A stretch of 62,598 nt of DNA, filler included, from a bacterium (GTDB lineage Bacteria; UBP15; UBA6099; JAJRTR01): assembly GCA_024278215.1 (NCBI GenBank). It is 7 parts of 7 records of this genome, joined end to end, with 100 filler letters (N's around TTAATTAATTAA, not from the genome) between each part and the next. Parts side by side here need not be neighbours in the genome. Positions count along the whole stretch, not along the records: positions 14,943 to 28,941 come from JAJRTR010000065.1; 6 more parts are not named here. One strand, written 5' to 3'. Of this stretch, positions 16,600 through 33,445 are shown in pieces; positions within the stretch are counted from its first letter, which is position 1, and each line of letters begins with the position of its first letter. The translations under genes and the position numbers were made by a program. The notes below the pieces were generated by a model, which was not told where the DNA came from, made no database searches, and saw nothing but the letters and a program-made list of their open reading frames with translations.

Positions 16600-16628
16600 G
16601 CGGTGTTGTGAAAAGGACGGTGAGAATT

Positions 16629-17657: not shown

Positions 17658-18265
17658 TGCTTAAGAGAGACGCTGAACGATTCCGAAAACTCGACGAGCG
17701 CATAAGGGTGTGCGACACAAAAGTGTGCGAAAAGCGGGACAGGTACCGCAAAAAACAGCGTTACCAGTCCCTGTTTTTCGCACATTAAAAATGTGGTTGT
17801 TTTTAACCCACTTTTATGTCGCACACCCGAGCGCATAAGGGAAATTGACAGAATGTACAATCTGCATAAAAATGAGAAGGGTGCGGATGCGAGGGCGGCG
17901 GCGATGATGCGTAAGGCATTGCTCTGTACGCACAACTTGTCTATGCGCTTGATAAGGAAAATAAGTGCGATGAGGCCGCGAGTTACGTTGCCGCGATCGA
18001 CACTCTTTACAATGACAGGACCCTTCTGGTCGCATACAACCCGTTGTTCCCATTAGGTCTGGTTTTTTTCTACTCCGACATGGAGGGCTATAAGAAGGAA
18101 CCTCCTGATTTTGACGAGTATCTCCAGGCGACAAGCGCCCCGCCCTTCGATGGCAGTGAAAACTGCGAGGATGTCGAAAAGCAACTCGACATGATCATTT
18201 ATGGCAGGGTCGTCGATGAAAATGAGATAGACGCCGGCGATTGGGAAAAGGAACTGGATAAATAA
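17657..18265 (+). pseudogene. Hypothetical gene broken by a MITE-B insertion and a frameshift
   Basis: MLKRDAERFRKLDERIR|EIDRMYN reads through once the MITE and one TSD copy are removed; frame switch near 17915 into AQLVYALDKENKCDEA...ELDK. Confidence 0.55.
17706..17828. mobile_element. MITE family B with 10-bp target duplication
   Basis: GGGTGTGCGACA...TGTCGCACACCC flanked by GAGCGCATAA at 17696-17705 and 17829-17838. Confidence 0.9.
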
Positions 18266-18356
18266 ACCGGATTCCTTTGCATAAAACCGGTTAGTGGTCT
18301 AATAACAGAGACTACGGACATGTCACATTTGCAAATGCGCAAGATGTGTAGACAAG

Positions 18357-18444
18357 GGCGGGGTCACCGTACCCCGCCTGAGCATATTTCTCGCGAAAAC
18401 GGTTTTTACAAGCACAAGTTGAGGCGGGGTACGGTGATCCCGCC
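18357..18444. repeat. REP-like inverted pair (REPIN-type)
   Basis: GGCGGGGTCACCGTACCCCGCCT and its near-perfect reverse complement, separated by a 42-bp spacer. Confidence 0.7.
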
Positions 18445-18489
18445 ACACTTATATCGTTTTTACGCTAATCCATCTTACGTCTTTTTTCA

Positions 18490-18541
18490 TCGTTCCGGGG
18501 CTCCGACCCGGAACGCAACGACTGAACGCCCCGAGTTCACC
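18490..18541 (+). repeat. REP-like repeat family C
   Basis: TCGTTCCGGGGCTCCGACCCGGAACGC..ACTGAACG; also at 21312-21363 and 58480-58531. Confidence 0.8.
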
Positions 18542-18611
18542 CCATTATTCGCCTGGCGACAACATGTTGTCGCTTACGGCTCGATAGGGGTCTATTTCAT
18601 GTTGGGATCAA

Positions 18612-19832
18612 CTATCCGAGAATATCGCCGAAATCGGTTTTCAATACTCCTTCGTCATAATACTTAAGTTTGTCATTGTGTTTTCTCCATCGGGAATCTT
18701 TAAAATATTCCCCCAGCATATACGGCAACTTTTCCACGAAAACCACCTCACGCATCTTATCGACAACCACCATCTTCTTGTTGTATCCGTTTTGAAACCA
18801 TTCGAACAATTGGGCGTTTATTCCGGTATCTCCAAAACTGTAGCCGATAACTACAAGCCTGTCAGTCTGCCAAAGATATTGTCTGAATCTGCGGTGTAGT
18901 TCATTAAATTGCAATGACAAGTATGATTCTATTTTATTCTCTGTTCCGATCAGGATGCAATGGCCGGCTGGTTCATAATTCACTCCAGAACCATCCAGAA
19001 CTTTTGTGTATTCATTATCAATATCTTTGTTGCCTACATATTTTGCGAGAATTGGAGGACCAACTTTATCATCATCAGCAGCCTTATAGCGGCGCCAATT
19101 AATCGAACCGTGAAGTTTCAGGAGCCTGACCCGATTATTGCTTTCAGTATCAAAGACACTAGGCTCCCACTTTCTGAGCTCTCCGTCACTTTCCGCGAAA
19201 CCATCTACATAGCGAATATCGTATTTATCAAAATATTGCTCAAGCACAGTATCGTGATTCAATGAAAAAATGTTCACTGGCATATTCTTGCTGTTTTTAA
19301 GTCTACAGAAAACAGTCTCCAGTTTTTCTAATTCAATATTCTTATGGTTATCTTTCAGCATCCTGATAACGGTATTGATAAGGTAGGTCGCCGCGTCTTC
19401 CAGAATCGTTCCCAGGTTTCCGACGTTCCTGTTTTCAGGCGTATTTTTCCATTTATCATTTAATTGTTCGTAATTTATTTGTTCAGATAATATACAACCG
19501 TAAGGATTGTAATCCCCGCAGTTATGCTGATGTAGCTGGGGAAGCATGTAAAACAGGTCTTCATAATTAACGGAATGTATTTTTTCTTCTGTCACGGAGA
19601 AAAAACATACATTTGTATTCTTATCCTCTGCAAAACAATATAGCCTTCTGAGAAACTCTAAGACAAGCTTGGAGTATGTTTCTTTTTCAAATCTATTTTC
19701 TCTTAGAATATAATTTGGGGTTTCCTGGATTCCTCTTTCCGATATAATTACATTTGTTATTTCGCTAGTCGATGGTTGGCCAAGTGCCGTTGACAATCCT
19801 GCTCCAATAAGATAGGAAATTCTTTCGTCCAT
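18612..19832 (-). CDS. SIR2-like (SIR2_2) domain protein, candidate defence NADase
   Basis: IGAGLS, FSLNHD, LKLHGSINW, VIGYSFGD motifs; AT-rich. Confidence 0.85.
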   Translation of the reverse strand: MDERISYLIGAGLSTALGQPSTSEITNVIISERGIQETPNYILRENRFEKETYSKLVLEFLRRLYCFAEDKNTNVCFFSVTEEKIHSVNYEDLFYMLPQLHQHNCGDYNPYGCILSEQINYEQLNDKWKNTPENRNVGNLGTILEDAATYLINTVIRMLKDNHKNIELEKLETVFCRLKNSKNMPVNIFSLNHDTVLEQYFDKYDIRYVDGFAESDGELRKWEPSVFDTESNNRVRLLKLHGSINWRRYKAADDDKVGPPILAKYVGNKDIDNEYTKVLDGSGVNYEPAGHCILIGTENKIESYLSLQFNELHRRFRQYLWQTDRLVVIGYSFGDTGINAQLFEWFQNGYNKKMVVVDKMREVVFVEKLPYMLGEYFKDSRWRKHNDKLKYYDEGVLKTDFGDILG

Positions 19833-20074
19833 ATTATCATCTCCATGTTTATTCATTATACAATGGGAATGGTATCACAGTAAATTATGGACAGGCGCTA
19901 GGAGAATTGCTTCTTGCGGATGCAAGAGCGGCGGCGATGATGATTGATGCGTTGCAAAAGTTCGATGATAAAGTCGAGCACCCCATCTGAAGAAAATAAT
20001 GCTTCTTCGCTATTTAGTGTGGGTAGAGAAATGTAGTGTGCCAGAGGATAACCAAATGTTTGCAAAAACCTATT

Positions 20075-20279
20075 CCGGATTTCTCGCGAAGAAATCCGGA
20101 ATAGCGCGATAACGCCTGTTCTACCGCGATGCAGCGGCGATTCGGGGTCGGTCCCATACCAGCATTTTGCGCAAGAGGCCAGCTGGCTGGCTACTCCCTC
20201 ACCACTCACTTGCCGCGCCTTGTTATTATTACGGGCATTCTCATGATTTTTGGCCCGCATTGGAGAAATATGCGGGCTA
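20075..20279. repeat. Repeat/MITE family D
   Basis: CCGGATTTCTC..GAAATCCGG...CCCGCATT.GAAATATGCGGG; homolog at 31197-31378, fragments near 3100, 37500, 50619, 53535. Confidence 0.75.
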
Positions 20280-20475
20280 TGTAGAGTTTTCCACAAAACC
20301 ACCGGCCGACAATCCTTTGAAATTGCCGGGAAACGGTGAGTATTGCGGTAAACCCGGCTCGATAGCTATGAGTTTTCTGTGCACACCGAAGCTTTTATGG
20401 TGAACGCGGAGCCCCGGAACGATGAAAAAACACGGAAAAGAAAAACAAACACTGTAATATAAGGAGAGTTTCACT

Positions 20476-20937
20476 ATGGCTTATGGAACGGAAAACGGAG
20501 TAAGCAACAACCTGTCGGACTATGCCGATCTCAACGACGCCGGCGCCATCAGCGCGGCGATGGTGTCCGAATGCAGGACATCGGCAGACGGCATTATCGA
20601 TGCAAAAATCGCGTCTGTCGTGTCGGCGACAACATTGCCGCTGGCATCGCCTCCGGCGGTCGTCGACAATATCTCGGACGATCTCACAACCTATTTCATC
20701 CTGCGGCGCGTCTTCACAGGCAAAGACCCGAACGACTCGGAATGGGTCGACAAGTTCTACGAACGCCCGCTCGAACTCCTCGAGTCGCTTCTTGAAAACC
20801 CGCAGATTATCGAAGACGCGCAGGGCGACGCGCCTCTCGACGACAATGTCGCATCCACCACCGAAGAGCAGGACCGTGTTTTTTCCGTCACCCGAACCGC
20901 CGCCGGCTCCGACTCCGGCACAATGGACGACTGGTGA
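20476..20937 (+). CDS. Head-tail adaptor (DUF1320/Mu gp36-like)
   Basis: MAYGT start; ADGIIDAKI..LPL..PP.VV..IS.DL..Y pattern; position after the capsid gene. Confidence 0.7.
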   Translation: MAYGTENGVSNNLSDYADLNDAGAISAAMVSECRTSADGIIDAKIASVVSATTLPLASPPAVVDNISDDLTTYFILRRVFTGKDPNDSEWVDKFYERPLELLESLLENPQIIEDAQGDAPLDDNVASTTEEQDRVFSVTRTAAGSDSGTMDDW

Positions 20938-21166
20938 GTGGCAACCGCATCAAAGGAGAGAAAAGCTCGCGTTATGTGCTTTTCTCCCTTTGTGCGTACC
21001 GGCGGGTGTATTGATGTGCCGTGGTGAGAGTACTTATGCGATTTGCGCATAAGCAATACAGATGCCTAAAAGCAGCTATGAGGCAACATGACTACTTGAC
21101 TGTCGGAGACATCGAAATGTAATTATTGAACTATTCGGCTCTTCGCTGAATCATGTGGGGAAGCTG

Positions 21167-21292
21167 CAATACCGTTTACTTAATGCTTTTTACGACAGGC
21201 GAGACGCCTGTCGTACCTGCCACGATGCTGTGAGATACAGTAGCACTGGCGTCTCGCCTGTGGCTGGGCATGACCTTAAGTAAACGGTATTG
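21167..21292. mobile_element. MITE family E containing a REP-like inverted pair
   Basis: 17-bp perfect TIR CAATACCGTTTACTTAA / TTAAGTAAACGGTATTG; internal ACAGGCGAGACGCC inverted pair. Confidence 0.75.
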
Positions 21293-21529
21293 GGGTAAGC
21301 TGAGTTTTCACTCGTTCCGGGGCTCCGACCCGGAACGCAGGGACTGAACGCTCCGGGTTCACCTTACCATCTGCATCTGCCTGGCGACAACATATTGTCG
21401 CCCGTGGCGCAATAAAGGCCAAGGCCCGGCATTGCGCTCAGAACCGCGCATAGCATTTTCACGAAATTCCGCATAACAATTTCACAACATTCTCAACAAC
21501 AACAACAAATCACACCACGGAGGTGCAAT

Positions 21530-22522
21530 ATGTCTATTGGTTTTCTCGGACATCTTGGATTGACACAGGAAAGCGAATTCGGAGAAGTGGCGTCGCCGCC
21601 CGCCGTGTTCGCGCAGATCGAAAACGAGTCCATCAGCATGGACAACAATCTCATACGGCCCGCCGCTATAAACGGCAGGCGATACAATAGCTGGTCTGTG
21701 CCCGGCAAAATATCCGCAGGCGGCGGCATCGGCGCGTTCATGCTGCCCGAGGGCGCGGTGCCGTGGTTTCTCAAAGGACTCTGGGGACAGGTGAGCAGCG
21801 CGCAGGCCGCCGCGGGTGTCTACGACCACACTTTCTCACCCGCACACACAGCCTCATTGCCGAGCTTCAGTCTGCAGGTCGATAACGGCGACGCCTGCCA
21901 GACCTGGACCGGCTGCACCGTCGGTGGCGCGTCCATTTTCATCGCGCGGAACGGCTCCCTCGGACTCGACCTCGACATCACCGCACAGCGGCCAGTCGAG
22001 TCGCAGTCGGCCACGCCGTCTTTCGCAGTTGTCGAGCCATGGAACGCGCGAAACGTCGAATTTACCCTCAACGGAGCGGCAAACCTTGACTTTGTAAAGT
22101 TCTCGCTGAAAATAACGAACAAAGTCGAGCCCCTCTGGACACTGAACGGCAAGCGCTACTGCCGCCGCCACGTCACACGCGGCTTCGAGATCGAGGGGAG
22201 CATCAAACTGCAGTTCAGCTCCGAAGAACAGCGCCGCCGCCTCTGGGGTTCTGTCTCCGCCACCGAGCCGCAGGGCGTCATACTGCCCGGCAGCCTCACA
22301 GTGACCGCCGTCCACGACACAGAAATAGCACCCGGCTACAACTACTCGCTCACACTCGAACTGCCTCGCATCTACTACATGGCCGCGCCCGCGACGATCA
22401 GCGGCATGTCAGAAGTAATCACGCAGACCATCGCCTTCATCGCCGCCTGCGACTCCGCACAGGACAAGTTCGCGGAAATGAAACTCCGCAACTCCGTCTC
22501 TGAATATCCAGGTCCTGACTGA
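21530..22522 (+). CDS. Phage tail tube (major tail) protein
   Basis: LGLTQESEFG start, VYDHTF, LPSFSLQ, WTGCTV, FSLKITN, IEGSI, MKLRN..Y end; 330 aa. Confidence 0.8.
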   Translation: MSIGFLGHLGLTQESEFGEVASPPAVFAQIENESISMDNNLIRPAAINGRRYNSWSVPGKISAGGGIGAFMLPEGAVPWFLKGLWGQVSSAQAAAGVYDHTFSPAHTASLPSFSLQVDNGDACQTWTGCTVGGASIFIARNGSLGLDLDITAQRPVESQSATPSFAVVEPWNARNVEFTLNGAANLDFVKFSLKITNKVEPLWTLNGKRYCRRHVTRGFEIEGSIKLQFSSEEQRRRLWGSVSATEPQGVILPGSLTVTAVHDTEIAPGYNYSLTLELPRIYYMAAPATISGMSEVITQTIAFIAACDSAQDKFAEMKLRNSVSEYPGPD

Positions 22523-22567
22523 CCACCCTGAAATACATGTAAACTTCATCATCAAGGAGGGAAAAAC

Positions 22568-23041
22568 ATGAATCCCGATATAAAAGACATTTCACTCGAA
22601 ATATACAATACTCTGAAAAACGACGGAACACTCTCCGCCTACGTCAGGCACTATGACAGGAGTATCAGCAATGTATCCAGAAAGCAGTTTCCTTATATTG
22701 CTGTCGGCAAGGTGTCATGCACGATAGAGCCGCTTACAGCAGGGCGTCACGGATACATAAATAAGCATTATTCAATAAACGTGATCGGCGGAACATACAG
22801 TCTTGTGCCCGAAATAGCCTACGCCGGCAAGGAAGACGGCAGCAAGAACGGCGTCCTGCAGCTAAGCGCCGACATCGTCTCTGCTCTCTATCCCGGTACG
22901 ATAAACGACACCTTCGACCATTGCATCGACATCAGCGATGTGTCCATCGCCACCGACGAAAGCACTGCCGGCAACCACTGGCATTCTCTCATCACAATAA
23001 AAGGCGTTCGCCGCGAGATGAGCAGCAGAAATACAGCATAA
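22568..23041 (+). CDS. Tail terminator/completion-like protein, paralog 1
   Basis: L.ND.TLSAYV, FPYIAV, GVLQL..DIV; paralogous to 24800 and 25398. Confidence 0.6.
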   Translation: MNPDIKDISLEIYNTLKNDGTLSAYVRHYDRSISNVSRKQFPYIAVGKVSCTIEPLTAGRHGYINKHYSINVIGGTYSLVPEIAYAGKEDGSKNGVLQLSADIVSALYPGTINDTFDHCIDISDVSIATDESTAGNHWHSLITIKGVRREMSSRNTA

Positions 23042-23178
23042 AAACAGTGTGTTGCTGATACGCAAAACAAACCTCAATAATTCCCATAACGGCATCGCAT
23101 ATAATGAATGTTTTGGAAACTGGATTTAGCACTTGAAACACTACACAAACGGGGATAAAATGAAAAGAGAGAAACGAT

Positions 23179-24000
23179 ATGTCAAACGCACCGATAAGCA
23201 ATGATGACTTAATGCGGCAATTTGAAAACGAAATGCACGAACTGTTTCTGCTGCCTGCCGAAATATGGCAGAATATCGCTAAAAACATTCTGGACAAGCT
23301 TGATATGATGCGGAAAAGAGTGCAGGAGAAGATTGATAGATTCGAGAACGACTCTGCATATCGGGAAGAGTGGCGAAAATGGTTGGGTCAGCCCAGCATC
23401 CCGCAGGTCACCCTGCCGCCCAGGCCGACAACAGAACTTGTCGAAGAAGGCTGGGAATATGTTAATATCTTCTTCTCTGACACTGATAAAGGCAGACTCT
23501 ACAGAGATACAGCAGTGTTGCTGGATACTATTCCATTACCTGCATACGGATATCTTACACCCATAGGTATATTGCTTGATATTGCAGCATTTGCAGGTTC
23601 AGCTACTGATATTTATTATAGTGATGCGAGTAGAGGAAGGAAATTTGGTGCTGAAATAGTGGCCTTTATCGGGTTAAGCGGAATCCCATTAAATACCGGC
23701 AGCTTTTTTATAGATATCAAAACTAACAGTCTTGCTCCTATCATTATCTCTGATGTGAAAATAAGCGATTTTACGACAAAAGATGGGTGGAACAAAATAG
23801 CACACACAAATCCATATATCAACCTTGGCTTTTACCATGCGGTAACAAAAGGGACGGATAAAGGAAGCAAATATCCGCCGGATATCAACTATGTCGATTA
23901 CATTGTTGAGCGCATCCCGTCTAAGCAGAAGATTGAGAGTTATCTTTGGTATATGCTGATTGATAAAACCCCGAAATCTGAAAAGAGGGCGAAAAAATGA
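23179..24000 (+). CDS. Putative toxin/effector (helical N-terminus, hydrophobic hairpin, AT-rich 3' half)
   Basis: GC drops within the gene; ATGA overlap with a small membrane-protein gene. Confidence 0.45.
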   Translation: MSNAPISNDDLMRQFENEMHELFLLPAEIWQNIAKNILDKLDMMRKRVQEKIDRFENDSAYREEWRKWLGQPSIPQVTLPPRPTTELVEEGWEYVNIFFSDTDKGRLYRDTAVLLDTIPLPAYGYLTPIGILLDIAAFAGSATDIYYSDASRGRKFGAEIVAFIGLSGIPLNTGSFFIDIKTNSLAPIIISDVKISDFTTKDGWNKIAHTNPYINLGFYHAVTKGTDKGSKYPPDINYVDYIVERIPSKQKIESYLWYMLIDKTPKSEKRAKK

Positions 24001-24431
24001 CGTGGTATATGAAGTATTTGGTTTCCATAGCTGTTTGCCTTATATCTGTTACGAGTATTGCTGCAATAGCTTCGGAATTAGGATATATTAGCGAAAATAT
24101 ATTTGATGTTTTATTGATGATAGCTCCCGTTATCAGCAGCCCCATTATTATAATTGCTCCGATCCGTGTTTTTTACTCTTTAGATTATTTAGAAAGAAAG
24201 AACGTGGTTAGAATCTATTATATGAATATTATGAAAAAAAGAATACGCCTTAATTGGAGATATAAATACATATCGTTTATAAAATTTATTTATTCTGTTG
24301 ATGCGCTGGAAAACAAGTCTGCCGAAAATCTCCGTAGTGACTGTCGTTCATGTTTTTCTTTTATTATTTACTATTTCGTCATCACAGTATTGACTTGTAT
24401 GATATTATTTATGTTGGAAAAATATCTCTGA
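23997..24431 (+). CDS. Small membrane protein, putative immunity protein
   Basis: About 3 TM helices, very AT-rich, translationally coupled to the upstream gene. Confidence 0.5.
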   Translation: MTWYMKYLVSIAVCLISVTSIAAIASELGYISENIFDVLLMIAPVISSPIIIIAPIRVFYSLDYLERKNVVRIYYMNIMKKRIRLNWRYKYISFIKFIYSVDALENKSAENLRSDCRSCFSFIIYYFVITVLTCMILFMLEKYL

Positions 24432-24530
24432 ATTAAGTTGTTTCCTATCAACAACTGTATATTAAAGGATGGACTGGGGTCAGGTCTGGATATTGGACAT
24501 AAGGGAGAAATTCAGTTGACAAACAGTAAT

Positions 24531-24709
24531 GAGCCAATTGCAAAATTCTGATTCGGCGGCGGTCGACTGCAATTGTCCATAGCTGCGTTGTCGGCACAAA
24601 ATCATCCTCAACGTACTCGGCGAGTACGCCTGCGGTGATTTTGCGCCTCCGCTTTGCTTCTGAATGATTTCGTTCGTTCTCGCTTCGAACATGATTTTGC
24701 AATTGGCTC
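24531..24709 (-). mobile_element. MITE family A
   Basis: Full-length copy with both TIRs. Confidence 0.85.
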
Positions 24710-24799
24710 GTCATCGTTGCGGATTTCCGGTTCGCAGCGGTAACGCGGTTTTTTACAAAACAATTCACAACAACCATTGATAAGAAATGGAGTAAACAC

Positions 24800-25246
24800 A
24801 TGCCTTCAGAAGATAAAAACATCATCTATGCAATTCTTGATTCACTACAGAACGACCCGCAGCTTTCTTCATACATCAAGAAATATTCCGCCGGAACATC
24901 GGAAATATCACGGAAGTTGTTCCCATACATAAACGTCGGCGGACTTCAATGCGAAGTGTCTGAAAAAACGCTCGGCAGAAGAGGCTACGACAGATACGAG
25001 TACCGTTTTGAAATAATCGCCGGCACGAAAAGCCTTGTAGACGAAAAAGCCTTTTCAGGCGACAACGGCATACTCCAGATTTGCGACGACATCGTGAATG
25101 TCATACGTCCCAACGACTTCGGCATCTTCGACTTCCCTGTGAGGATTCTCAACATCTTGCCTTTCTATAAGATCAGCAACGGCGGCACCGACTGGACCGC
25201 GCAAATACTCATCCACGGCGTGAGAACTGTTCAGCGCAATGATTGA
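24800..25246 (+). CDS. Tail terminator/completion-like protein, paralog 2
   Basis: LQNDPQLSSYI, ISRKLFPYINV, AGTKSLV, GILQICDDIV. Confidence 0.6.
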   Translation: MPSEDKNIIYAILDSLQNDPQLSSYIKKYSAGTSEISRKLFPYINVGGLQCEVSEKTLGRRGYDRYEYRFEIIAGTKSLVDEKAFSGDNGILQICDDIVNVIRPNDFGIFDFPVRILNILPFYKISNGGTDWTAQILIHGVRTVQRND

Positions 25247-25397
25247 AGAATAAGAAAAAGCCCGTAATGCTCATCATCCTTCCCACTGTCACAGGCGGGA
25301 ACGCATAAGACTGTCGCAGCGCTCCCGGAGTTCACCTGGATAACGCATGATAATGAGAACTACGGCTTTCACCAAAACCCCGAAAGGAAACAACAAC

Positions 25398-25847
25398 ATG
25401 GCAAGCTCAATGAGAGAAACAGCGAACATAATAAAAGAGGAACTCGAGAACGACCCGACCCTGGCATCCTATGTAAAATCATTCAAGGCCGGCGACCTCC
25501 GAATATCACGCATGATCTACCCTTATGTCAGCGTAGCCAACATCAGCCTCGGCATAGCGCCCCACGACACCGCGCGCGACATCCACACGTACAGCATCCA
25601 GATCATGGCAGGCACCCGCAGCCTCGTCCCAGGCCGCGCATTCGAGGGCAGCGAACAAAGCGGAGCCAGAGGCATCGTCCAGCTCTGCGAAGACATCGTC
25701 GCTGTCGTGCGCGACAACACATTCGGCGGCATCTTCTTCGCGCCGCCGGCGAATATCACTTGCAAACTCTATGAAAACAAAAACTCCGGCGGTATCGCAT
25801 GGAACGCCGGCGTTGCTTTCGCAGCGTTTAAGTTCGTTTCCAGATAG
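25398..25847 (+). CDS. Tail terminator/completion-like protein, paralog 3
   Basis: LENDPTLASYV, ISRMIYPYVSV, AGTRSLV, GIVQLCEDIV. Confidence 0.6.
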   Translation: MASSMRETANIIKEELENDPTLASYVKSFKAGDLRISRMIYPYVSVANISLGIAPHDTARDIHTYSIQIMAGTRSLVPGRAFEGSEQSGARGIVQLCEDIVAVVRDNTFGGIFFAPPANITCKLYENKNSGGIAWNAGVAFAAFKFVSR

Positions 25848-25958
25848 CTGTTGTTGTATAGACTGATGACAGGTACAATGGAAAGGATTACAAAATGACA
25901 AAAGGTGAAATTAAGAGATATAAGAACATCTACATGGAAAGCATCTTTGAGGAGAAAC

Positions 25959-26288
25959 ATGAAACCGCCAATATATCATTTTATGTTGTTTTTGCCATTT
26001 ATATTTATGTTTTTGTATTCACCGATAATATTTTTTTGCAAAGCAAAGTTTTTCCAGAAACTTCACGACGAGAATCGTGTATTGCATAACTTTATTCATG
26101 AGAATTTCTGGATGCTTGGCTTGAGGCGAACAGCAATTGTCTGGTGCCCTACGCTGATATATGGAAGAGAACTGACCAGCAGCTGGTCTGAAGATATTGT
26201 CGAACTGCATCGCAGTCTGAGAATCAGAATTTTTATAGGTCTTTTTATCTTTATCATACTGCATTTTGTGAGCAGACTATTTATATGA
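25959..26288 (+). CDS. Small membrane protein (orphan immunity-like)
   Basis: GAGGAG RBS, hydrophobic N- and C-terminal segments, AT-rich. Confidence 0.5.
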   Translation: MKPPIYHFMLFLPFIFMFLYSPIIFFCKAKFFQKLHDENRVLHNFIHENFWMLGLRRTAIVWCPTLIYGRELTSSWSEDIVELHRSLRIRIFIGLFIFIILHFVSRLFI

Positions 26289-26376
26289 AAACAAATGTTC
26301 GCATACGAACTCCGAACCGGTGCAGCCGGAACCCGAAAGGCCGGAGGTCGGAGTCAGTCAATGAACAATCAACCAT

Positions 26377-26814
26377 ATGGCGCGACACGAAACCAGAAAG
26401 ATATTTGTTGCCAGAGAAAACATGAGGAATAAACATGTATGGACGTTGCACGAAAAAAACATGTGGCGGGTTATGTATGTCGACACAAATTATTTTCTCG
26501 TGTTTTTTGCGCAGATTGCAGTTTTTGGAGAGGTCGAGGTTTTAGTTCCCGGAATAACCGGTTTTATTTTGTTCATACTGTTTCTTTCGACCGGTCATTT
26601 TAGCTGGGTTTATATTTATAAGGCAAATAAGAAGGTAAAAGAGCAGGGAATTGACGTTTCGGATTCACAGAAGTTTTATGACTGGCTGGTAGAAAACGAC
26701 TATCCGCAAGGATATGGTTATGTGCTTCTGGGAATGTACATATTGTCTGTCTTTTTCGCGGTGCTGCACCTGACGCTGTTGCCGGTGTTGAATCAACTGA
26801 CTGCCGCTGGATAA
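26377..26814 (+). CDS. Small membrane protein (immunity-like family)
   Basis: W..EN.YP..Y.Y....YILSV motif shared with 27055 and the 27600 fragment. Confidence 0.55.
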   Translation: MARHETRKIFVARENMRNKHVWTLHEKNMWRVMYVDTNYFLVFFAQIAVFGEVEVLVPGITGFILFILFLSTGHFSWVYIYKANKKVKEQGIDVSDSQKFYDWLVENDYPQGYGYVLLGMYILSVFFAVLHLTLLPVLNQLTAAG

Positions 26815-26826
26815 GCATCGCAATAA

Positions 26827-26982
26827 CAAAACGCAGCCGTCATCAGTATTGAAGAAGGCCATTTCCCGGCTGTGTATGACGAGATCGAAAGAAAAGCGAA
26901 CAGTTTCGTAGAGCGTTTTGCGTTAGGGATTGTCAGCGATCCATACTTTCGGTCGATAAGGAGTTTTATCCCTTCAATATAG
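26827..26982 (+). pseudogene. Orphan C-terminal fragment, possibly of a metallopeptidase toxin
   Basis: Start-less open frame ...PAVYDEIERKANSFVERF...PSI* with an E..A..F motif, directly before an immunity-like gene. Confidence 0.35.
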
Positions 26983-27054
26983 GATATGGTGCTTTTTTCG
27001 CTACTTTAACCATTTCGCCCCACAGATTCCGCAGGGGAAACCAGGATATTAACC

Positions 27055-27507
27055 ATGTCATTCTTTTTTACTACCGTTTTTATTATTATGAATTACTTTT
27101 TCTCGCGCGATATAATAAGGCTGTCGAGAAGGAGCACTTTATTTCAGACCCTTTTAGAAACAGGTAGTTATGCAGGGCTGAATGCCGTTGTTATGTATTT
27201 GGCTGCCACCCTGATTAGAAGAGAGTTTATTGGTATCGGAGTAGGAGTACAGGGAATCATACTTTTTTGTATCTTTGTCTACAGTTGTTATATCAATATC
27301 TACATTCGTAAAAAGGCTTTTATTATGACAAAAGACATGCGTTTTCCGAGTAATGACGAGGCTGCGGAATGGATATCAGACAATATATCTCTCGGTCATC
27401 ACAAATACACAATACCTGCGTCATATATCCTCTCGGTTTTATGCGGTATGTTCCATCTTCTGTTGATGCTTCTGCTTGACATGAAAGTAATTGTTATTGT
27501 GCAATGA
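27055..27507 (+). CDS. Membrane protein (immunity-like family)
   Basis: About 4 TM helices; EWISDN...YILSVL paralog of 26377. Confidence 0.55.
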   Translation: MSFFFTTVFIIMNYFFSRDIIRLSRRSTLFQTLLETGSYAGLNAVVMYLAATLIRREFIGIGVGVQGIILFCIFVYSCYINIYIRKKAFIMTKDMRFPSNDEAAEWISDNISLGHHKYTIPASYILSVLCGMFHLLLMLLLDMKVIVIVQ

Positions 27508-27599
27508 AAATAGGGGCTGAAAAGGGCCAATAATAAATACGCTTATGAGCCAATTGCAAAATTATGATGATTCTATATGACGCAATTACACGACATCCA

Positions 27600-27758
27600 G
27601 CTCTGCGAAGACGATATCCTCAGGTGTTATATAGTTGGCTGATCGAGAATGATTACCCTGAAGTATATAGATATGTACTTCTTGGAACGTACATATTATC
27701 TGTTTTGGCTGCTGGAATATACTTGATATTACTATCACTGTTAAACTTGTTGAATTAG
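27600..27758 (+). pseudogene. 3' fragment of an immunity-like paralog
   Basis: LYSWLIENDYPEVYRYVLLGTYILSV matches FYDWLVENDYPQGYGYVLLGMYILSV; a MITE-A end lies at about 27547. Confidence 0.65.
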
Positions 27759-27829
27759 CCCATATTTCTCTGTGAGAAATCCATCTTAGCAACAACAAGT
27801 ATGTAATTCCGGTGCAATAAAGGGCCAAC

Positions 27830-28217
27830 GCCCGGCAAAATATCAGCAGGCGGCGGCATCGGTGCGTTCCTGCTGCCCGAGGGTGCTGTGCCGTGGTTTC
27901 TCAAAGGACTCTGGGGACAGGTGAGCCGCGCGCAGGCCGGCGCGGGCGTCTACGACCACACTTTCTCTCCCGCACACACAGCCTTATTGCCGAGCTTCAG
28001 TCTGCATGTCGATAACGGAGACGCCTGCCAGAACTGGGCTGGCTGCACCGTCGGCGCCGCGTCCATTTTCATCGCGCGGAACGGCTCCCTCGGACTCGAC
28101 CTCGACATCATCGCACAGCGACCGGTCGAGTCGCAGTCGGCCACGCCGTCTTTCTCCGGCGTCGATGCCTGGAACGCACGCAACGTCGAATTTACTCTCA
28201 ACGGAACGGCAAACCTT
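27830..28217 (+). pseudogene. Partial duplicate of the tail tube gene
   Basis: 388 bp, 31 mismatches by manual count (~92%) against 21700-22087. Confidence 0.93.
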
Positions 28218-28245
28218 AAATATCGGGTATAATAAAGGGAGAATC

Positions 28246-28803
28246 ATGACTGAGAAAAATAAGAAAAAGCAGAAGGATGTCTATAGGGAAAGCATTTTTG
28301 ATTATCTTGAAGCAAATTCAGAGCCGCTGATAGATCGTGAGAAGTACACGGACAGCATATTTGAAATGCTGGAGCGGGCGAACGGACCGGAAGACGAATA
28401 CAGTGATTCCATATTTGACCTGTTGGAGAAGAATTCAAGTAATGCAGGTGTTGGATATTCGCGAGATACAGTATCTATTGACTTCAAGAGCTTTGACTAC
28501 TGTGAGGGATTGGGATGTATTGAAGATTTCGTTGACATCGATATGCTGAAACAGGCTATAATGAAAAATGGAATGGAATTGCCTGCCAGAATTGTATTTA
28601 AAAGGTTTAATTTGTTATATAATAAAATGGGTATTGGTGGAACAACAAATACATCGTCACAAAATACGATTTGTATAAATATAGATTATGTTCATGAGAA
28701 AAACGAATTGATGATTGTTGAGGCGATAGCACATGAAACATGGCATCTAAGAAAGCAACCTAAAGTAATCAGGTCAATTCCCCTTATCAGGAAATCTTAT
28801 GAA
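28246..28803 (+). pseudogene. HExxH metallopeptidase (putative toxin), 5' part, IS-interrupted
   Basis: AAGGGAG RBS, AIAHETWH motif; cut at RKSYE by an IS end and continues at 49822. Confidence 0.75.
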
Positions 28804-28941
28804 CTGGACAGTACCAAGTTTACCATCAAGCTGCAAGGCGAAAGTCAGGTAATCTACCAGGGTCGGCGTTTTCGAGGATGAATAACGCAAGGTCGGCCTG
28901 ATTATCCCCGGCAAAGAGAAATTCGGGAAGTGAATGCCTCA
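28804..28941 (-). mobile_element. IS element end with transposase-like C-terminus
   Basis: 17-bp TIR CTGGACAGTACCAAGTT; minus-strand frame ends ...GRLPDFRLAA*; TSD TTATGAA at 28797-28803. Confidence 0.85.
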
Positions 28942-29041: not shown

Positions 29042-29245
29042 AGGCCGCGCCGCAACAAGCCGCGCTCTGATGTCGAGAAGTCGATAAGAGAGGTAGCAGC
29101 ATGGCGCGCGCGACACCTGCGCGAACGCGCCGAAAGCGCCATCTCCGCACTGCCCGCCGTAGAAGACAGCGCGCCGCCTGCCGGGGCAGCGGCCACCGAC
29201 ACGGCGCGTCTTGTTCCTTTCGGACGACAAACAAAAAACTTCTGA
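29042..29245 (+). CDS. 3' end of a gene upstream of the portal (terminase position; identity unknown)
   Basis: Open frame from the contig edge, RPRRNKP...QTKNF*; call rests on synteny only. Confidence 0.3.
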   Translation, partial: RPRRNKPRSDVEKSIREVAAWRARHLRERAESAISALPAVEDSAPPAGAAATDTARLVPFGRQTKNF

Positions 29246-29397
29246 GGATTCCGGCTCTGCCTCAGAATCTGTGAGTTTACTTCAAGCCGGTCGCAGCAGA
29301 ATCGTAATTTTCCAATCAGCTTACTTATCAAAACAAAAAACGACAGACAGGAGGCGGAGCCTTCGAGCAACCCGCTTGCAGGGCTCCCGACAAACAG

Positions 29398-30735
29398 ATG
29401 AAAACAACAGAGGCAATCAGGAAGTATATCGGCAGGATAAGAGGGAATGAACCCGTCGGAAGACATGATGGACTTGCGAGCACAGCGACAGGCTCGACTA
29501 ATGACGGCACAGCGGCGGACTCGGCCTACAGCGGTGCGGCGGCAATACAGAAAACCGGACCGGCCGCCCCGGCCTCCGCGCGCCGGGAAGTCGGCGTGGA
29601 CGTCGAGATCGCGCGCCAGCGCGGGCCGGGCGGTTTCGTCTCGTTCCGCAATCCCGACGATCTCGCCGCGGGCAAAGGGCTCGACACCTACGACCGCATG
29701 ATGACCGACGCGCAGGTGCGCATGGCCGTCAACTACAAGCGCTTCGCCGTCATATCGAGCGACTGGGAGATCGCCCCGGCCTCGGACTCGCCGGCGGATA
29801 AAGAAATAGCCGCGTTCGTGAAGTCGGCCCTCGACAATATGAACGGCTCGCTCGTGCAGGCGGTCTTCGGCATCATGAACGCCCTCGTGCACGGCTACTC
29901 GATCTCGGAGATGGTGTTCGAGCCGATAGAAAGCGGGGCGTTCGCGGGCAAGTGGGGCCTGCGCGCCGTCAAGCCGAAACACCCGGAAGATTATGACTTC
30001 GACCTGGACCGTTTCGGCAACATCAAGTCGCTGCTGCTGACAGACGAGAACAGCAAACAGACGAAAGTGCCCGCGTGGAAATTCGCCCTGTATACATATC
30101 TGCCGGAGTTCGGGCGGCCATGGGGGCGCAGCGACCTGCGGGCCGTCTACAAACACTGGTGGTCGAAAGACTTCCTGCTCAAATGGTGGAACATATACCT
30201 CGAAACATTCGGCGCGCCCACGCGCGTAGGCAAGTATCCGGCCGGCTCGACCAGCGTCTCGAAACAAACCGACCTCAAGCGCGTGCTCCGCGACATCGTC
30301 AACAATACCGCCATCACGCTGCCCGACGACATGGACATCGAGTTTATCACAGCCGCGGGCAACGCCGGGTTCGAGACCGCCGTCGAGTACCACGACGCGC
30401 AGATCGTCAGGGGCATCCTCGGCCAGACACTCACCAGCAGCGAAGGCAAGCGCGTCGGCTCGCTCGCGCTCGGCAACGTGCACCAGGAAACGATGGAAGA
30501 CTACGTCACATTCCTCCGGCGCGACATCGCCGAATCTGTGATGCGCGAGCAGATAATCCGGCGGCTCGTCGAGTTCAACTATTCGGGCGTCGACACGCTG
30601 CCGCGCTTCGTGTGGCAGCCGCGCAAGGGCAAGATTGTGATGTCGTCCGTCTCGGATATCGCCACACTCATCGACACCGGCATCGTCACCAGCGACGACT
30701 TCGCCGCGCTGCGCGAGCGTCTCGACCTGCCGTGA
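29398..30735 (+). CDS. Portal protein, DUF935/Mu gp29-like
   Basis: YDRM..D.QV, A..HGYS..E, PWGRS.LR..Y..W..K, ETFGAP..VGKY, ILGQTLTS..G..GSLALG.VH. Confidence 0.92.
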   Translation: MKTTEAIRKYIGRIRGNEPVGRHDGLASTATGSTNDGTAADSAYSGAAAIQKTGPAAPASARREVGVDVEIARQRGPGGFVSFRNPDDLAAGKGLDTYDRMMTDAQVRMAVNYKRFAVISSDWEIAPASDSPADKEIAAFVKSALDNMNGSLVQAVFGIMNALVHGYSISEMVFEPIESGAFAGKWGLRAVKPKHPEDYDFDLDRFGNIKSLLLTDENSKQTKVPAWKFALYTYLPEFGRPWGRSDLRAVYKHWWSKDFLLKWWNIYLETFGAPTRVGKYPAGSTSVSKQTDLKRVLRDIVNNTAITLPDDMDIEFITAAGNAGFETAVEYHDAQIVRGILGQTLTSSEGKRVGSLALGNVHQETMEDYVTFLRRDIAESVMREQIIRRLVEFNYSGVDTLPRFVWQPRKGKIVMSSVSDIATLIDTGIVTSDDFAALRERLDLP

Positions 30736-30891
30736 GCGGTTATATCATATTCTCCTTGTCTCCGGTGTTCTTTACAATAAAGAGCAAAAGGCACAAAGAA
30801 AAGAAACTTGACCACCGCCGCAGCCAATAAGCCGACAGGCAAAGAGAGTAGTCTACGGCATCTGCGCAGAACCAAGAACGAACAATCATTT

Positions 30892-31069
30892 GAGCCGATT
30901 GCAAAATTCTGATTCTGCTGCGGTCGGCTGCTATTGCCCATAGCTGCGTTGTCGGCACAAAATCGTCCTCGACGTACTCTACAAGTACGCCTGCGAGGAT
31001 TTTACACCTCCGCCTTGCTCTGAACAATTTCGCTCGACCTCGCTACGAACATAATTTTGCAATTGGCTC
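30892..31069 (-). mobile_element. MITE family A
   Basis: Full-length copy. Confidence 0.85.
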
Positions 31070-31196
31070 ATTGGAATTTTGTTATCATCACTGACATTCG
31101 AGGAGTTCTTGGACAGAGTTGAAAATTTCATAAAAGAGAATTACCCGGATTACGAGAAATATCTCAGGTATCTGGAATGAGCCGGGCACGCCGTTT

Positions 31197-31378
31197 TAGC
31201 CCGGATTTCTCACAAAGAAATCCGGAAAACCGGGATAACGCCTGTTCTATTGCGTTGCGATGGCGATTCGGGATCGGTCACATACTTACAGTATGCTCCC
31301 TCACCACTCACTTGCCGCGCCTTGTATTATAGGCGTTCTTCCGGTTTTCAAACCCGCATTTGTGAAATATGCGGGTTA
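31197..31378. repeat. Repeat/MITE family D
   Basis: Homologous to 20075-20279. Confidence 0.75.
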
Positions 31379-31498
31379 GAAGCGAGTTGCCGATGAGGGA
31401 AATGTGTTTGCAGTATTCGCTTGCGCATTTCCCTCTCAACCATTATCCTTCAATCAGGTATTTATCCTTATATTCAAAACGGCATGAGGTGTTCCGGC

Positions 31499-32147
31499 AT
31501 GAAATTTCGAAAATTTCTTATAGGATGCGGCGCAACGATTATTATTGCCCTTAGTATTTGTGGTGCATATAGTATATATCGATTTATCCTTACCTATCTT
31601 TCAACCTTACGATTCAGACTGGCCGCGACTGAGTGAAAAGGATCAGAAGTTCATTGATGATGTCTCGAACATGATGACGGATGCGGGGCTTTTTACCGTA
31701 CACAACGATAATGATGATGAACTTGCGCAGGAGATAGACAAAGTGCGTGAATTAGAAAAGTATGTCAAAAGTAAGGAAGGCTATGTATTTGATTCCGGAG
31801 CCGTATTCAGAGAAGCTTCTTCTTTCCACATATTGACAGTGGAAGCCTATATCAAGGCTTACGATTCATACGGCGAATGCGATAAGGTCTATGAGCTTAT
31901 GCCTGAATTCATAAGTATGATAAATGATGACTACCAGATAGTGGAATTATTCACCGGAGAAACAACCGATCCTGAAATGGAGACGAGTGAAGAATACTAT
32001 GAGAAAAAAATAGATGAAGATGCTTTTTTAATAAGTTTATTGAGAGATCTCAAATGCAAAAGCTGTGGAATTCAGCCACATCCGTATTGGCGCCTCAAGG
32101 GGAGTTGTAACCCTGGCGCGCCACCGGATGAACCCGGCGTTGATTAG
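31499..32147 (+). pseudogene. Membrane-anchored acidic protein with a frameshift near 31590
   Basis: Signal-anchor ORF MKFRKFLIGC... overlaps the second-frame ORF ...PIFQPYDSDW; could be a sequencing error. Confidence 0.5.
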
Positions 32148-32325
32148 AATACCCCGCAGGATAGAAAAAGTTCCCTAAAAGAACATTGTGTAAGATCTGG
32201 GAAGATCTGGGGACACCATACACAATTATTTGCAATATAAGATTATTTTTGACGCAAACGGCACTATCAGAAAATCCTGGAATGCAAAAACGTCAGTTTT
32301 TGCGAAATGCGACTTCTTCACAGTT

Positions 32326-32397
32326 GCAACGACACAGTCGTTGCATTCCAGAAATTTCAGATGTACTGTTGCGAGCAGTTACCCGTGAACGGATACA
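32326..32397 (+). repeat. Short repeat family F
   Basis: GCAACGA.ACAGTCGTTGCATTCCAGAAATTTCAGATGTAC...GAACGGATAC; second copy at 52819-52889. Confidence 0.8.
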
Positions 32398-32508
32398 GTG
32401 GTTTTGCGAAAAGCGGGATAGGTACCGCAAAAAACAGCGTTACCAGGCCCTGTTTTTCGCACATTAAAAATGTGGTTGTTTTTAACCCACTTTTATGTCG
32501 CACATCCC
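32398..32508. mobile_element. MITE family B, one end lost
   Basis: Near-identical to 17727-17828. Confidence 0.8.
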
Positions 32509-32680
32509 ATAACGGCGAAAAGGATGCACAAAAGCGCAAGCGTGGATATAATATCTGTATCCCGGAGGGGAAGCGCGGCGCGTGTCGTGGGGGGGCTCTC
32601 CTTATTGAGGCCGGGAAATCGTGACTATCCTGTCCTGAGTCCTGAGTATACGGGACGGCAGGCGCGGAGACAGCGGAATA

Positions 32681-33262
32681 TTGATTGACGACGGCACTAT
32701 AATGGACCGGCTGTGCGAACAGCTTGTGGCTGCTGCGGCGGACTACGATGCGGCGCGTCACGACCTCGACGATATTGTCGAGTTGTTTATTACGGACATA
32801 AAACAGAACCTCAGGTTGTATGTGTTCAACAATATCAAGCGGGAACTCACAAAGAATCCGCGCCGACTGGAAGATATAGACGAGGTGAAGTTGCGACAAC
32901 TCCGCGGCGAACTCGAGCAGCCGCTGTATGATGAAACCGAGCGAATCGTAGCCATACTGCGCGATTTCCCCGGCTGGTACGATCTTGACACTGTATATAT
33001 AGATGTTTCTTCAAAAGTGTGGAGAGCAGTCAAGTCGGTCGAAACACCTGTCAATAGAATTCTGAAGAAGTTCGACATCTCATCAATAAATATGAAGAAC
33101 TGGACATGGTTGTCCGAAGACATCAACAGGCTGGCGACCGAGCACTTTCCGGGAACCAAGAAGGAGTATATCGAAAGAAAGAAGAAGTATGCTTATCTCG
33201 AGGACAGATACCGGGAAGAGGAGCGACTCGGGAACGCTATAGAAAGGCTCGAAGGCTTATAG
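32681..33262 (+). CDS. Hypothetical helical protein
   Basis: 193-aa ORF with plausible composition; no motif recognised. Confidence 0.6.
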   Translation: MIDDGTIMDRLCEQLVAAAADYDAARHDLDDIVELFITDIKQNLRLYVFNNIKRELTKNPRRLEDIDEVKLRQLRGELEQPLYDETERIVAILRDFPGWYDLDTVYIDVSSKVWRAVKSVETPVNRILKKFDISSINMKNWTWLSEDINRLATEHFPGTKKEYIERKKKYAYLEDRYREEERLGNAIERLEGL

Positions 33263-33445
33263 CGCGACCTGTGCGGATTTTCGGGGGCATGATGTGGCTT
33301 CACGCTTTATTCGCAAGGAATTGTTATATGTCTCCGCGGGGTGGCAACGAATCATGTGTGCCAGGCCCGATCTGTTTTTGTTTGGGGGCGAACAACACTT
33401 TGACAGCATTCCGAGCGGTCCCGACGGTGTGTGCTGTATTGCAAA

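Follow-up and report, generated by a model that had tools for sequence, protein, structure and literature searches.

Why do AT-rich genes for small soluble and membrane proteins accumulate among the tail genes of a resident phage-like element? The question is posed by a 62,598-base stretch of DNA from a bacterium of the lineage UBP15 (assembly GCA_024278215.1; hereafter the window), which comprises seven contigs (1-4127, 4228-14842, 14943-28941, 29042-37208, 37309-42109, 42210-49582, and 49683-62598) with N44-TTAATTAATTAA-N44 spacers between them. The genes concerned occupy positions 22568-28941 and continue at the start of the last contig. An initial annotation had proposed that they form an array of toxins and immunity proteins. 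In comparing the array with its counterparts, we label loci from relatives with L-numbers and related genomes with G-numbers. On our best reading, accessory genes occupy a hypervariable hot spot here, where terminator and tube genes meet in a long-resident element with a Mu-like head and a noncontractile tail. Regarding function, the reading that we tentatively prefer, with a probability of roughly 0.4, is that the cassettes are toxin/immunity-like conflict modules in a moron hot spot. Morons, in the definition attributed to Juhala and Hendrix in the available portion of PMC3594210, are extra DNA between otherwise adjacent genes, of differing composition, with their own promoter and terminator, and expressed from the repressed prophage.

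The cassettes stand out by composition, one hallmark of morons. Specifically, the guanine-plus-cytosine (GC) content of the cassettes (23050-24790, 25850-27800, and 28233-28941) is 0.39, versus 0.60 for the tail tube gene (21530-22522), and GC at third codon positions (GC3) is 0.32–0.49 in cassette genes versus 0.69–0.83 in structural genes. These values confirm the earlier picture of AT-rich cassettes amid GC-rich tail genes. The intervening "tail genes" are GC-rich as described, but they are in fact three paralogs with a terminator fold and one internal fragment of the tube gene. All of the genes and gene fragments of the array, the intact tube gene, and the tail genes that follow lie on the plus strand.

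The first cassette, pair 1, joins a 273-amino-acid (aa) open reading frame (ORF; 23179-24000, GC3 0.43) to a gene for a 144-aa protein with three transmembrane (TM) segments (23997-24431, GC 0.31). The coupling noted previously is real: the two genes overlap by 4 nt (ATGA), and the downstream product has three hydrophobic segments. The 273-codon frame is maintained in DNA of 42% GC and follows an AG-rich Shine-Dalgarno-like stretch; Shine-Dalgarno-like sequences likewise precede the 144-aa gene and the HExxH gene described below. A promoter-like site (TTGAAA-17-TAAAAT, 10/12; 23133-23161, plus strand) is located 5′ of the 273-aa ORF; promoter-like sites in the region number 19 in total, not above the 13.9 ± 3.7 of shuffled sequence. 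Among 1.84 billion representative sequences, the 273-aa protein has two relatives. One is a 261-aa protein, 51% identical over 257 residues (1-257) and similar along its whole length, and the other is an 87-aa piece that matches the C-terminus (residues 194-261). A word search recovered the query alone (562 candidates), and a scan of viral contigs with the 273-aa alignment found none. In the 273-aa protein, one hydrophobic segment reaches threshold (residues 160-178), and it sits within a central stretch that, judged by eye, is hydrophobic over a greater length. Three predictions of a complex between the 273-aa and 144-aa proteins scored 0.00, 0.55, and 0.00, which is evidence neither way.

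The second pair is divided between two contigs. Codons 1-186 of the HExxH gene occupy 28246-28803, with the motif HETWH at residues 163-167, and the last 19 codons plus the stop codon lie at 49822-49881. Between them is a mobile element, here called X, whose left end (28804-28941) carries the 17-bp sequence CTGGACAGTACCAAGTT at 28804-28820 and whose right end (49683-49814) carries CTGGACAGTACCAAGTT reverse-complemented at 49798-49814. These inverted ends are perfect. A 7-bp target duplication, TTATGAA, stands on either side (28797-28803 and 49815-49821), and the HExxH gene is split at codon 186. Once element X is set aside, the frame is continuous over 205 codons and ends at the stop codon 49879-49881; after a gap of 17 nt comes the second gene of the pair, which encodes a 92-aa membrane protein with three TM segments (49898-50176, GC 0.29). 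Thus, the initial annotation was correct to join 28246-28803 with 49822-50176. Its designation of the product as an HExxH peptidase holds for the motif, while "peptidase" draws on the motif and on a match to DUF5700 that stays below threshold. The inverted ends, the target duplication, and the continuous frame together indicate that contigs 14943-28941 and 49683-62598 are adjacent, with one mobile element between them. Consequently, the cassettes are internal to the tail module: neck and tube genes precede them, and the tail genes from 52112 onward follow.

Element X also explains the assembly breaks: 119 nt of its right end recur, inverted, at 62480-62598, the far end of the third phage contig. 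A 19-mer of its end occurs at 28802 (plus strand), 49798 (minus strand), and 62478 (one mismatch), with 0.01 occurrences expected by chance, and the 17-mer end is not present in 42 loci from relatives. The interior of the element is absent from the assembly; the visible part contains the 3′ end of a small ORF (49683-49787), and two inverted copies flank approximately 12.7 kb of tail genes. For the HExxH protein itself, a word search returned the query alone (66 candidates), its leads in the protein atlas score 0.89 or less, and it has no match to PF13699 up to an E value of 10. Neither this protein, the 273-aa protein, nor the 145-aa membrane protein introduced next is found in 12 related genomes.

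Between the two pairs lies a run of small membrane-protein genes, which we find, as annotated, at 25895/25959-26288, 26377-26814, and 27055-27507, with a fragment at 27564-27758. At the start of the run (25895-26288), two frames overlap: ORF 25895-26089 (64 aa), which has a good ribosome-binding site, and ORF 25905/25959-26288. Judging from this overlap and a T-run near 26030, the gene may be frameshifted or dependent on slippage. The first 19 residues encoded by ORF 25895 are similar to those that begin the HExxH protein (47% identity, pairwise E 6e-4). The motif Yx[DE]SIF[DE] is found in the window as three N-terminal repeats in the HExxH protein and a single time in the N-terminal part of the ORF 25895 product. 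The gene at 26377-26814 encodes a 145-aa protein with three TM segments and a weak match to phrog_1486, a "membrane protein" in the moron category (E 3.1e-4). Its 150-aa paralog at 27055-27507 is 23% identical over 122 aa (E 2e-4). A third member of this TM family survives as a 64-aa C-terminal fragment (27564-27758, 66% over 32 aa) that abuts the solo end of a miniature inverted-repeat transposable element (MITE; 27546-27564), the two together spanning 27546-27758.

The genes that separate the cassettes place them at the terminator-tube junction. The intact tail tube, or major tail, gene (21530-22522, 330 aa) matches Pfam Phage_tube_2 (E 5.6e-23) and phrog_290 (E 6.8e-31). It is followed by three paralogs: A1 (22568-23041, 157 aa), which is 27–37% identical to A2 and A3; A2 (24800-25246, 148 aa), whose best match is the Aa protein of L010 (46%); and A3 (25347-25847, 166 aa), whose best matches are the Ab proteins of relatives (42–46%). 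In relatives, the family is represented by an adjacent pair of genes, Aa and Ab; of the window paralogs, A1 and A2 belong to the Aa type and A3 to the Ab type. Sequence searches of the PDB produced nothing below E 0.2. A structural model of the A3 sequence, built from a 15-sequence alignment of the family, reached a pLDDT of 87.7 and had 40 PDB matches at E ≤ 1e-3, with phage neck and terminator chains in the lead: the NF5 and R4C neck chains, lambda gpU, T5 p142, and Mu (Foldseek E 5e-6 to 1e-4). The terminator of a gene transfer agent (GTA), 6tba, is also among the matches, and those in BFVD include proteins named "tail completion protein." In all of the relatives examined, the terminator-fold genes adjoin gp36 or the tube gene. 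By modeled fold and by position, A1, A2, and A3 are tail-terminator-fold proteins of the lambda gpU kind. The earlier placement of the array among the tube and terminator genes of a noncontractile-tail element with a capsid is thus supported.

Structural genes in the array have themselves been duplicated and damaged. An internal fragment of a second tube gene, with an upstream hairpin, lies at 27815-28217; its segment 27830-28217 is 92% identical over 388 nt to 21700-22087. The 5′ junction of the fragment is what a 276-nt deletion would leave if it had joined two GCCCGGCA microhomologies, the first within the hairpin that precedes the tube gene and the second near codon 57 of that gene. On the 3′ side, the fragment gives way directly to the HExxH cassette. 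A short hairpin at 21418-21430, about 100 nt before the tube gene, recurs at 27824-27836 beside the fragment. After pair 2, a 3′ fragment of a second A3 copy (50208-50452) is 96.7% identical over 245 nt to 25571-25815. For the adjoining ORF tail at 50453-50550, the idea of a HEPN-like protein was dropped, as Pfam found nothing. We infer that the locus was built as a series of [tube-Aa-Ab-cassette] units that eroded reciprocally, leaving a single intact tube gene, two intact Aa genes, and one intact Ab gene; the other copies show a microhomology deletion, a cassette that starts inside a tube copy, and a break beside a MITE end. The initial annotation had spoken of "orphan tips," but such fragments are not specific to effectors: tube, terminator, and membrane-protein genes are truncated too, and some of the breakpoints are linked to transposons.

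How such a region turns over is revealed by relatives. The tube protein has six homologs besides itself in a set of 5.8 billion proteins (42–53% identity) and only distant matches in the phage collection (14 records, at most 27.6% identity). Single-protein tube scans of genome and viral contigs returned none, whereas alignment-based scans yielded 4 genome loci, 6 metagenome loci, and 4 distant viral loci. All 4 genome loci belong to one family of 8 genomes, the order and phylum of which total 12 genomes; among these 12, the tube gene is present in 8, the head gene in 5, and the portal gene in 9. The RecN-like protein of the window matches 9 of the 12 genomes with 44–54% identity, which ties the window organism to this lineage. 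Gene order is plastic across relatives. Two loci have no cassette at the corresponding place, so that the array amounts to extra DNA between otherwise adjacent genes. Specifically, L032 has the order scaffold-head-gp36-tube followed by homologs of the 52112 and 52817 genes, and L033 has the order head-glycosyltransferase-gp36-tube and, further on, a 1387-aa tape-measure homolog, with none among gp36, tube, and tail genes. Elsewhere, AT-rich DNA intervenes at varying points: head-gp36-Aa-Ab-[3 kb of about 40% GC]-tube, then tail genes, in L003; tube-Aa-Ab-[8 kb of low-GC DNA] in L001 and L006; tube-Aa-Ab-[cassettes]-scaffold-head in L004; and portal-tube-Aa-Ab-[low-GC DNA] in L031. In L035 (G008), three ORFs (20-1206) represent a broken second tube gene, and three further ORFs that by eye resemble tyrosine recombinases (1395-4637) precede Aa-Ab.

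The initial annotation had suggested comparing strains for cassette swapping at fixed junctions, and the comparison across relatives bears the idea out: different cassettes sit between flanking structural genes that are 95–99% identical. L003 and L008, for instance, share 97% identity from L003:8786 onward, and ahead of that point their sequences are unrelated. L008 retains the gene for a 241-aa TM protein (99% nt identity) plus about 100 nt of the zincin-like gene upstream of it, so that the upstream partner is lost, and other membrane-protein genes replace the remainder of the L003 cassette. L034 has a third cassette set upstream of a tube gene whose protein sequence is near-identical. Similarly, a pair encoding a 212-aa protein and a 116-aa protein with three TM segments lies between gp36 and Aa in G003 and G008, and G001, which lacks the pair, has 90 nt there. 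The junction between the head gene and the next gene also differs among G001, G003, and G008, as does the region after Ab.

A recurring unit emerges from these comparisons: a gene for a small cytoplasmic protein, followed within 0–32 nt by a gene for a small polytopic membrane protein, with solitary membrane genes besides. In L003, the pairs are 186 aa with a 78-aa protein of two TM segments and a 210-aa zincin-like protein (IHEAAHVWQY) with the 241-aa protein, also of two TM segments. In L004, a 197-aa DUF4347-like protein precedes TM paralogs of 133 and 139 aa, and a 77-aa C-terminal fragment precedes a 287-aa protein with six TM segments. In L006, an 84-aa fragment precedes a 230-aa protein with four. 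The soluble members are unrelated to each other by BLAST. A motif that we defined post hoc, [DEQ]YI[FV]xG[AP]D, occurs near the N-termini of the 186-, 210-, and 212-aa proteins and nowhere else in 2587 ORFs (338,841 residues). A double-glycine leader was considered for it and dropped: the spacing does not suit the usual consensus, and no transporter gene was seen. Free-standing DUF4157-like HExxH proteins with the signature ILIHE[TA]AHVWQFQ are also encoded outside the cluster, in L015 (634-1209; G004) and L017 (680-1132; G003). According to the available portions of the sources, DUF4157 marks toxin genes in tail-derived contractile injection systems (PMC8213781), and a putative Hcp-dependent toxin of the type VI secretion system is a DUF4347 protein (PMC8262886). 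The DUF4157-like and DUF4347-like resemblances of the cassette proteins are leads, not memberships. Finally, the ratio of nonsynonymous to synonymous substitution rates (dN/dS) is 0.14 for the 212-aa protein and 0.41 for its 116-aa partner (G003 versus G008), 0.14 for the 241-aa protein (L003 versus L008), and 0.04–0.16 for structural genes. The low values mean that the relatives' cassette genes are under purifying selection and are real genes. The cassettes of relatives contain genes of non-toxin kinds as well, namely WG repeats, NHL, ankyrin, a methyltransferase, and the recombinase trio.

The components that the initial annotation listed, namely an effector-type gene with a coupled small membrane gene, orphan membrane genes, and fragments, are therefore present. 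The pairs have the arrangement of immunity genes (a 4-nt overlap in pair 1 and a 17-nt gap in pair 2), though protection is putative. Soluble and membrane genes paired repeatedly and tightly, a membrane gene that outlives its partner, and runs of solitary membrane genes fit toxin/immunity modules somewhat better than exclusion proteins or a Rex-like system. In such modules, the upstream protein, that is, the 273-aa protein with its hydrophobic central stretch or the zincin-like HExxH protein, would be the effector. It would be made in the orientation of the late structural genes and freed at cell lysis; the downstream inner-membrane protein would shield the carrier; and solitary membrane genes would be immunity genes retained against the effectors of related elements.

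Several observations weigh against this assignment. The candidate effectors have no recognized toxin domain or family in Pfam, PHROGs, or PADLOC; the 273-aa protein in particular has no family in any of the three, and its AF2 model was unusable (pLDDT 38.8). Its atlas neighbors score at most 0.85, with a PT-TG cluster at 0.81 and a colicin cluster at 0.79, values that the tool flags as often due to chance; a PT-TG or colicin-like identity was accordingly dropped, as Pfam also gave no match. The candidate effectors have no N-terminal hydrophobic segment, which we take, by our own reading, to mean that they lack signal peptides; any release route is therefore conjectural. The HExxH protein scores 20.8 bits for DUF5700, below the Pfam cut-off of 25, and a link between it and the L003 zincin was abandoned because the two have no similarity (E 11). 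Its cassette, interrupted by a mobile element, may be dead. The 210-aa protein of L003 scores 17 bits for eCIS_core (DUF4157, PF13699), below the curated cut-off of 22, which the HExxH protein of the window does not reach either; PF13699 likewise drew hits in 5 of 14 control genomes. The 197-aa protein of L004 scores 17 bits for DUF4347, below the cut-off of 24.6. Small DUF4157-like proteins are also encoded outside the phage-like cluster, in G003 and G004, where their genes adjoin membrane-protein genes. On the membrane side, Pfam, PHROGs, and PADLOC return nothing save the phrog_1486 match, and an upstream partner is missing for 4 of the window's 6 membrane-protein genes, which equally fits lone exclusion proteins.

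A narrower claim of the initial annotation, membership in the Rhs, contact-dependent inhibition, or MuF type of polymorphic toxin, does not hold. The candidate effectors are 186–273 aa long and have no N-terminal delivery domain in Pfam and no recognized toxin domain, and proteins encoded after the portal gene (in the window, L039, and L041) include none of the MuF family. Nor is there a constant N-terminus joined to a variable C-terminus. The 261-aa homolog resembles the 273-aa protein from residue 1 to residue 257, and unrelated cassette proteins have only short N-terminal motifs of 8–19 residues in common. C-terminal fragments followed by membrane genes do occur in the relatives L004 and L006, and the fragments in the window derive from tube, terminator, and membrane genes. 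Loading into the particle, also proposed, is unsupported.

Ordinary morons are the strongest competing account. Here, lone inner-membrane proteins would block DNA entry by related particles, in the manner of HK97 gp15, the soluble genes would be independent accessory cargo, and the hot spot would gather anything of benefit to its carrier. We regard this as possible, although we doubt it on balance. Insertion between conserved genes, absence from relatives, and deviating GC content are exactly what it calls for, as are the promoter-like site before the 273-aa ORF, the weak moron-category match of the 145-aa protein, the predominance of partnerless membrane genes, and the non-toxin cargo of relatives. 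A clear defense gene, SIR2_2, occupies another junction of the same contig. What this account does not lead one to expect is the pairing of a soluble with a membrane protein in at least 7 unrelated, tightly coupled cassettes, which chance is not expected to produce, and no protein of the array matches described exclusion proteins in Pfam, PHROGs, or PADLOC.

Abortive infection of the RexA/RexB type, in which a cytoplasmic sensor gates a small membrane effector that depolarizes the infected cell, strikes us as improbable. Pair 1 is its best exhibit: the order and sizes of the products (273 aa soluble, 144 aa polytopic) resemble those of RexA and RexB, the genes are translationally coupled, and a resident phage-like element is the context in which Rex operates too. 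Against it, PADLOC gives no match; the upstream proteins are mutually unrelated and have no sensor-type domain; and solitary membrane genes, or the loss of the partner in L008, would be useless or harmful in a gated system.

Likewise improbable is decay, by which the array would be nonfunctional DNA in a defective prophage and its ORFs mere remnants. Decay is suggested by the truncation of tube, terminator, and membrane genes, by the MITE and the solo MITE end that lie within the array, by the disrupted HExxH gene, and by the possibly frameshifted ORFs at 25895/25959. The 273-codon frame with its 51% identical homolog, the Shine-Dalgarno-like sequences before three genes, and the dN/dS values of relatives' cassette and structural genes speak for function. 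Finally, a chimera of coexisting strains produced by metagenome assembly is very improbable: short contigs do break at repeats, but the duplicated pieces differ (92% and 97%) and so were not collapsed or chained by identity, the junctions bear clean signatures (a microhomology deletion, and inverted ends with a target duplication bridging two contigs), and partial tube genes occur in relatives too (G003:C3 and G008:C282).

The hot spot belongs to an element that appears to have resided in its hosts for long. In G001, G003, and G008, the scaffold-head side of the cluster adjoins the same cellular genes (methyltransferase, major facilitator superfamily transporter, and GH20) at 85–95% nt identity, about the same identity as in the cluster itself. 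The head-tail cluster thus occupies one chromosomal locus in three species, in one group only, and its structural genes are under purifying selection. Together with the host MITEs and the transposable element in the window cluster, these facts point to a long-resident, functional element and not a recently arrived phage. Terminase and portal genes are on contigs other than those of the scaffold-head-tail cluster (L038/L039 and L040), albeit in fragmented metagenome-assembled genomes. The portal gene borders cellular genes in G010 and in the window (29398-37208), and the 15 kb upstream of the G001 scaffold gene contain no portal gene. The cluster is possibly domesticated. Separate portal and terminase genes, with a shared head-tail locus under purifying selection, form a layout that resembles a GTA.

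In the window, phage-like genes are found on 3 of the 7 contigs, and cellular genes (CLC channel, RecN-like protein, GH31, dockerin protein, radical SAM, and short-chain dehydrogenases/reductases) are found on most. Contig 14943-28941 carries a scaffold-like gene, the major head gene (phrog_1005, E 1e-62), and a gene for a family-9 glycosyltransferase, continues with SIR2_2 (minus strand), Mu gp36, and the tail tube gene, and has the cassette array at its 3′ end. Contig 29042-37208 begins with a Mu-type portal gene (E 2e-76), after which come low-GC ORFs and cellular genes. Contig 49683-62598 supplies the remainder of the tail module, with four genes (52112-58451) up to one for a 1389-aa protein; homologs lie directly 3′ of the tube gene in L002, L003, L009, and L033, and Pfam finds no family in their products. 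By size and position, the 1389-aa protein is a candidate tape measure, and the label "chaperone" comes likewise from gene order and size. The SIR2_2 gene (18612-19856, minus strand; PADLOC Aga_SIR2, E 3e-23; GC 0.38) is an insertion in opposite orientation, with the head and glycosyltransferase genes on one side and gp36 on the other; this is a second cassette junction of the operon. In the window and the relatives' cassettes, PADLOC detects this gene, a methyltransferase weakly, and nothing else. The glycosyltransferase gene (16608-17657), of normal GC content, lies between the head gene and gp36. Its counterpart in G004 (L033 11366-12385) is 53% identical, and it therefore seems a stable part of the cluster, not a cassette.

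Repeats are scattered over the same contigs. A MITE-like repeat of about 180 nt, R1, has a full copy at 24527-24709 (plus strand); its copies, at 84–96% identity, lie at 9398-9573, 24527-24709, 30890-31070, 41969-42109, 45776-45959, and 49438-49582. The ends read TGAGCCAATTGCAAAATT, with solo ends at 27546, 41800, 45653, and 50692, and the terminal 19-mer, in inverted ends, occurs 12 times against 0.01 expected. The repeat is on both cellular and phage-like contigs, including two contig ends, and was not found in the fetched loci of relatives. A noncoding element of about 200 nt is present at 20075-20279, 31201-31378, and, in part, 50593-50648, as well as in L006 (3063-3240 and 18391-18589). 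It is 69–81% conserved between genomes with tube proteins just 47% identical; the 10-bp hairpin at its 5′ end is invariant, and the hairpin at its 3′ end shows three compensatory pairs. It has no Rfam match, and the whole window gives 0 matches at Rfam gathering thresholds. These sequence features make it a candidate for a structured RNA or a recombination site linked to cassette junctions. An intergenic, hairpin-containing repeat, GTTCCGGG...CCCGGAAC, is situated near the SIR2 gene (18484-18573), before the tube gene (21305-21401), and after the 1389-aa gene (58476-58531). Short repeats common to cellular and phage-like contigs, 93–97% identical, are at 14162-14289, 17707-17829, and 32397-32507, and also at 32325-32396 and 52818-52889.

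A more far-reaching idea, which we consider a long shot, is that a small candidate phylum has domesticated the cluster as a vertically inherited particle system, in which the terminator-tube junction would be a dedicated site of effector-immunity exchange. The N-terminal motifs ([DEQ]YI[FV]xG[AP]D in one genus, Yx[DE]SIF[DE] in the window) would direct processing or loading, and a noncontractile, capsid-bearing particle would carry protein weapons.

Which known systems does the locus resemble? GTAs such as RcGTA are alike in having a head-tail cluster at one locus, here in three species, under purifying selection, and here the terminase and portal genes lie apart from it, beside cellular genes. 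Hypervariable cassettes inside the cluster are not known as a feature of GTAs. Polymorphic toxin systems, reportedly laid out by Zhang et al. in 2012, offer a second comparison. As far as the available portions of PMC5576092 and PMC12226406 describe MuF and polymorphic toxins, the likeness lies in phage carriage, an effector candidate followed by a small protective-looking gene, orphan fragments, extra immunity-like genes, and rapid turnover. In contrast, the locus here has no N-terminal delivery domain, no C-terminal toxin domain, and no constant-N/variable-C design, and it lies at the terminator-tube junction, whereas MuF toxins lie beside the portal. DUF4157 toxins of extracellular contractile injection systems (PMC8213781, available portion) are also small HExxH proteins beside tube-type genes of a phage-derived particle, and the motif region of the L003 protein resembles DUF4157. 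Unlike those systems, the present element has a capsid, no sheath was found, and no large C-terminal toxin is attached.

Hot spots for defense and accessory genes are also carried at fixed positions by prophages of the P2 kind and satellites of the P4 kind (PMC11364771 for satellite hot spots). As in those, the locus has conserved phage flanks, interchangeable cargo, and a SIR2 defense gene in a neighboring junction. The differences are that the cargo here consists mostly of unannotated soluble-plus-membrane units and that the hot spots lie inside a late structural operon. If the pairs are effector/immunity modules, they would constitute a phage-borne toxin locus of new design, with small free-standing effectors, set inside a late structural operon at the terminator-tube junction. 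The lineage has 12 genome representatives, and nearly all of its cassette proteins are orphans. On the conservative reading, too, several fixed junctions of a structural operon serve as sites of cassette exchange, structural genes were duplicated and then reciprocally eroded, and a phage-like cluster has been kept at one locus across species under purifying selection.

The closest single precedent is gene 15 of phage HK97, a stretch of deviating-GC DNA between conserved genes of the tail operon that encodes a small inner-membrane product (Cumby et al.; PMC3594210, available portion). Like the gp15 moron, the cassettes are inserts of deviating GC content among tail genes, have small membrane products, and are absent from close relatives. 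Unlike it, they come many to a junction and at several junctions, they mostly comprise two genes with a soluble partner, and they are accompanied by duplicated and eroded structural genes; their products have no sequence relation to gp15. The repeated coupling of a soluble with a membrane protein thus goes beyond the single-gene precedent of HK97 gp15, as do the retained and the solitary membrane genes.

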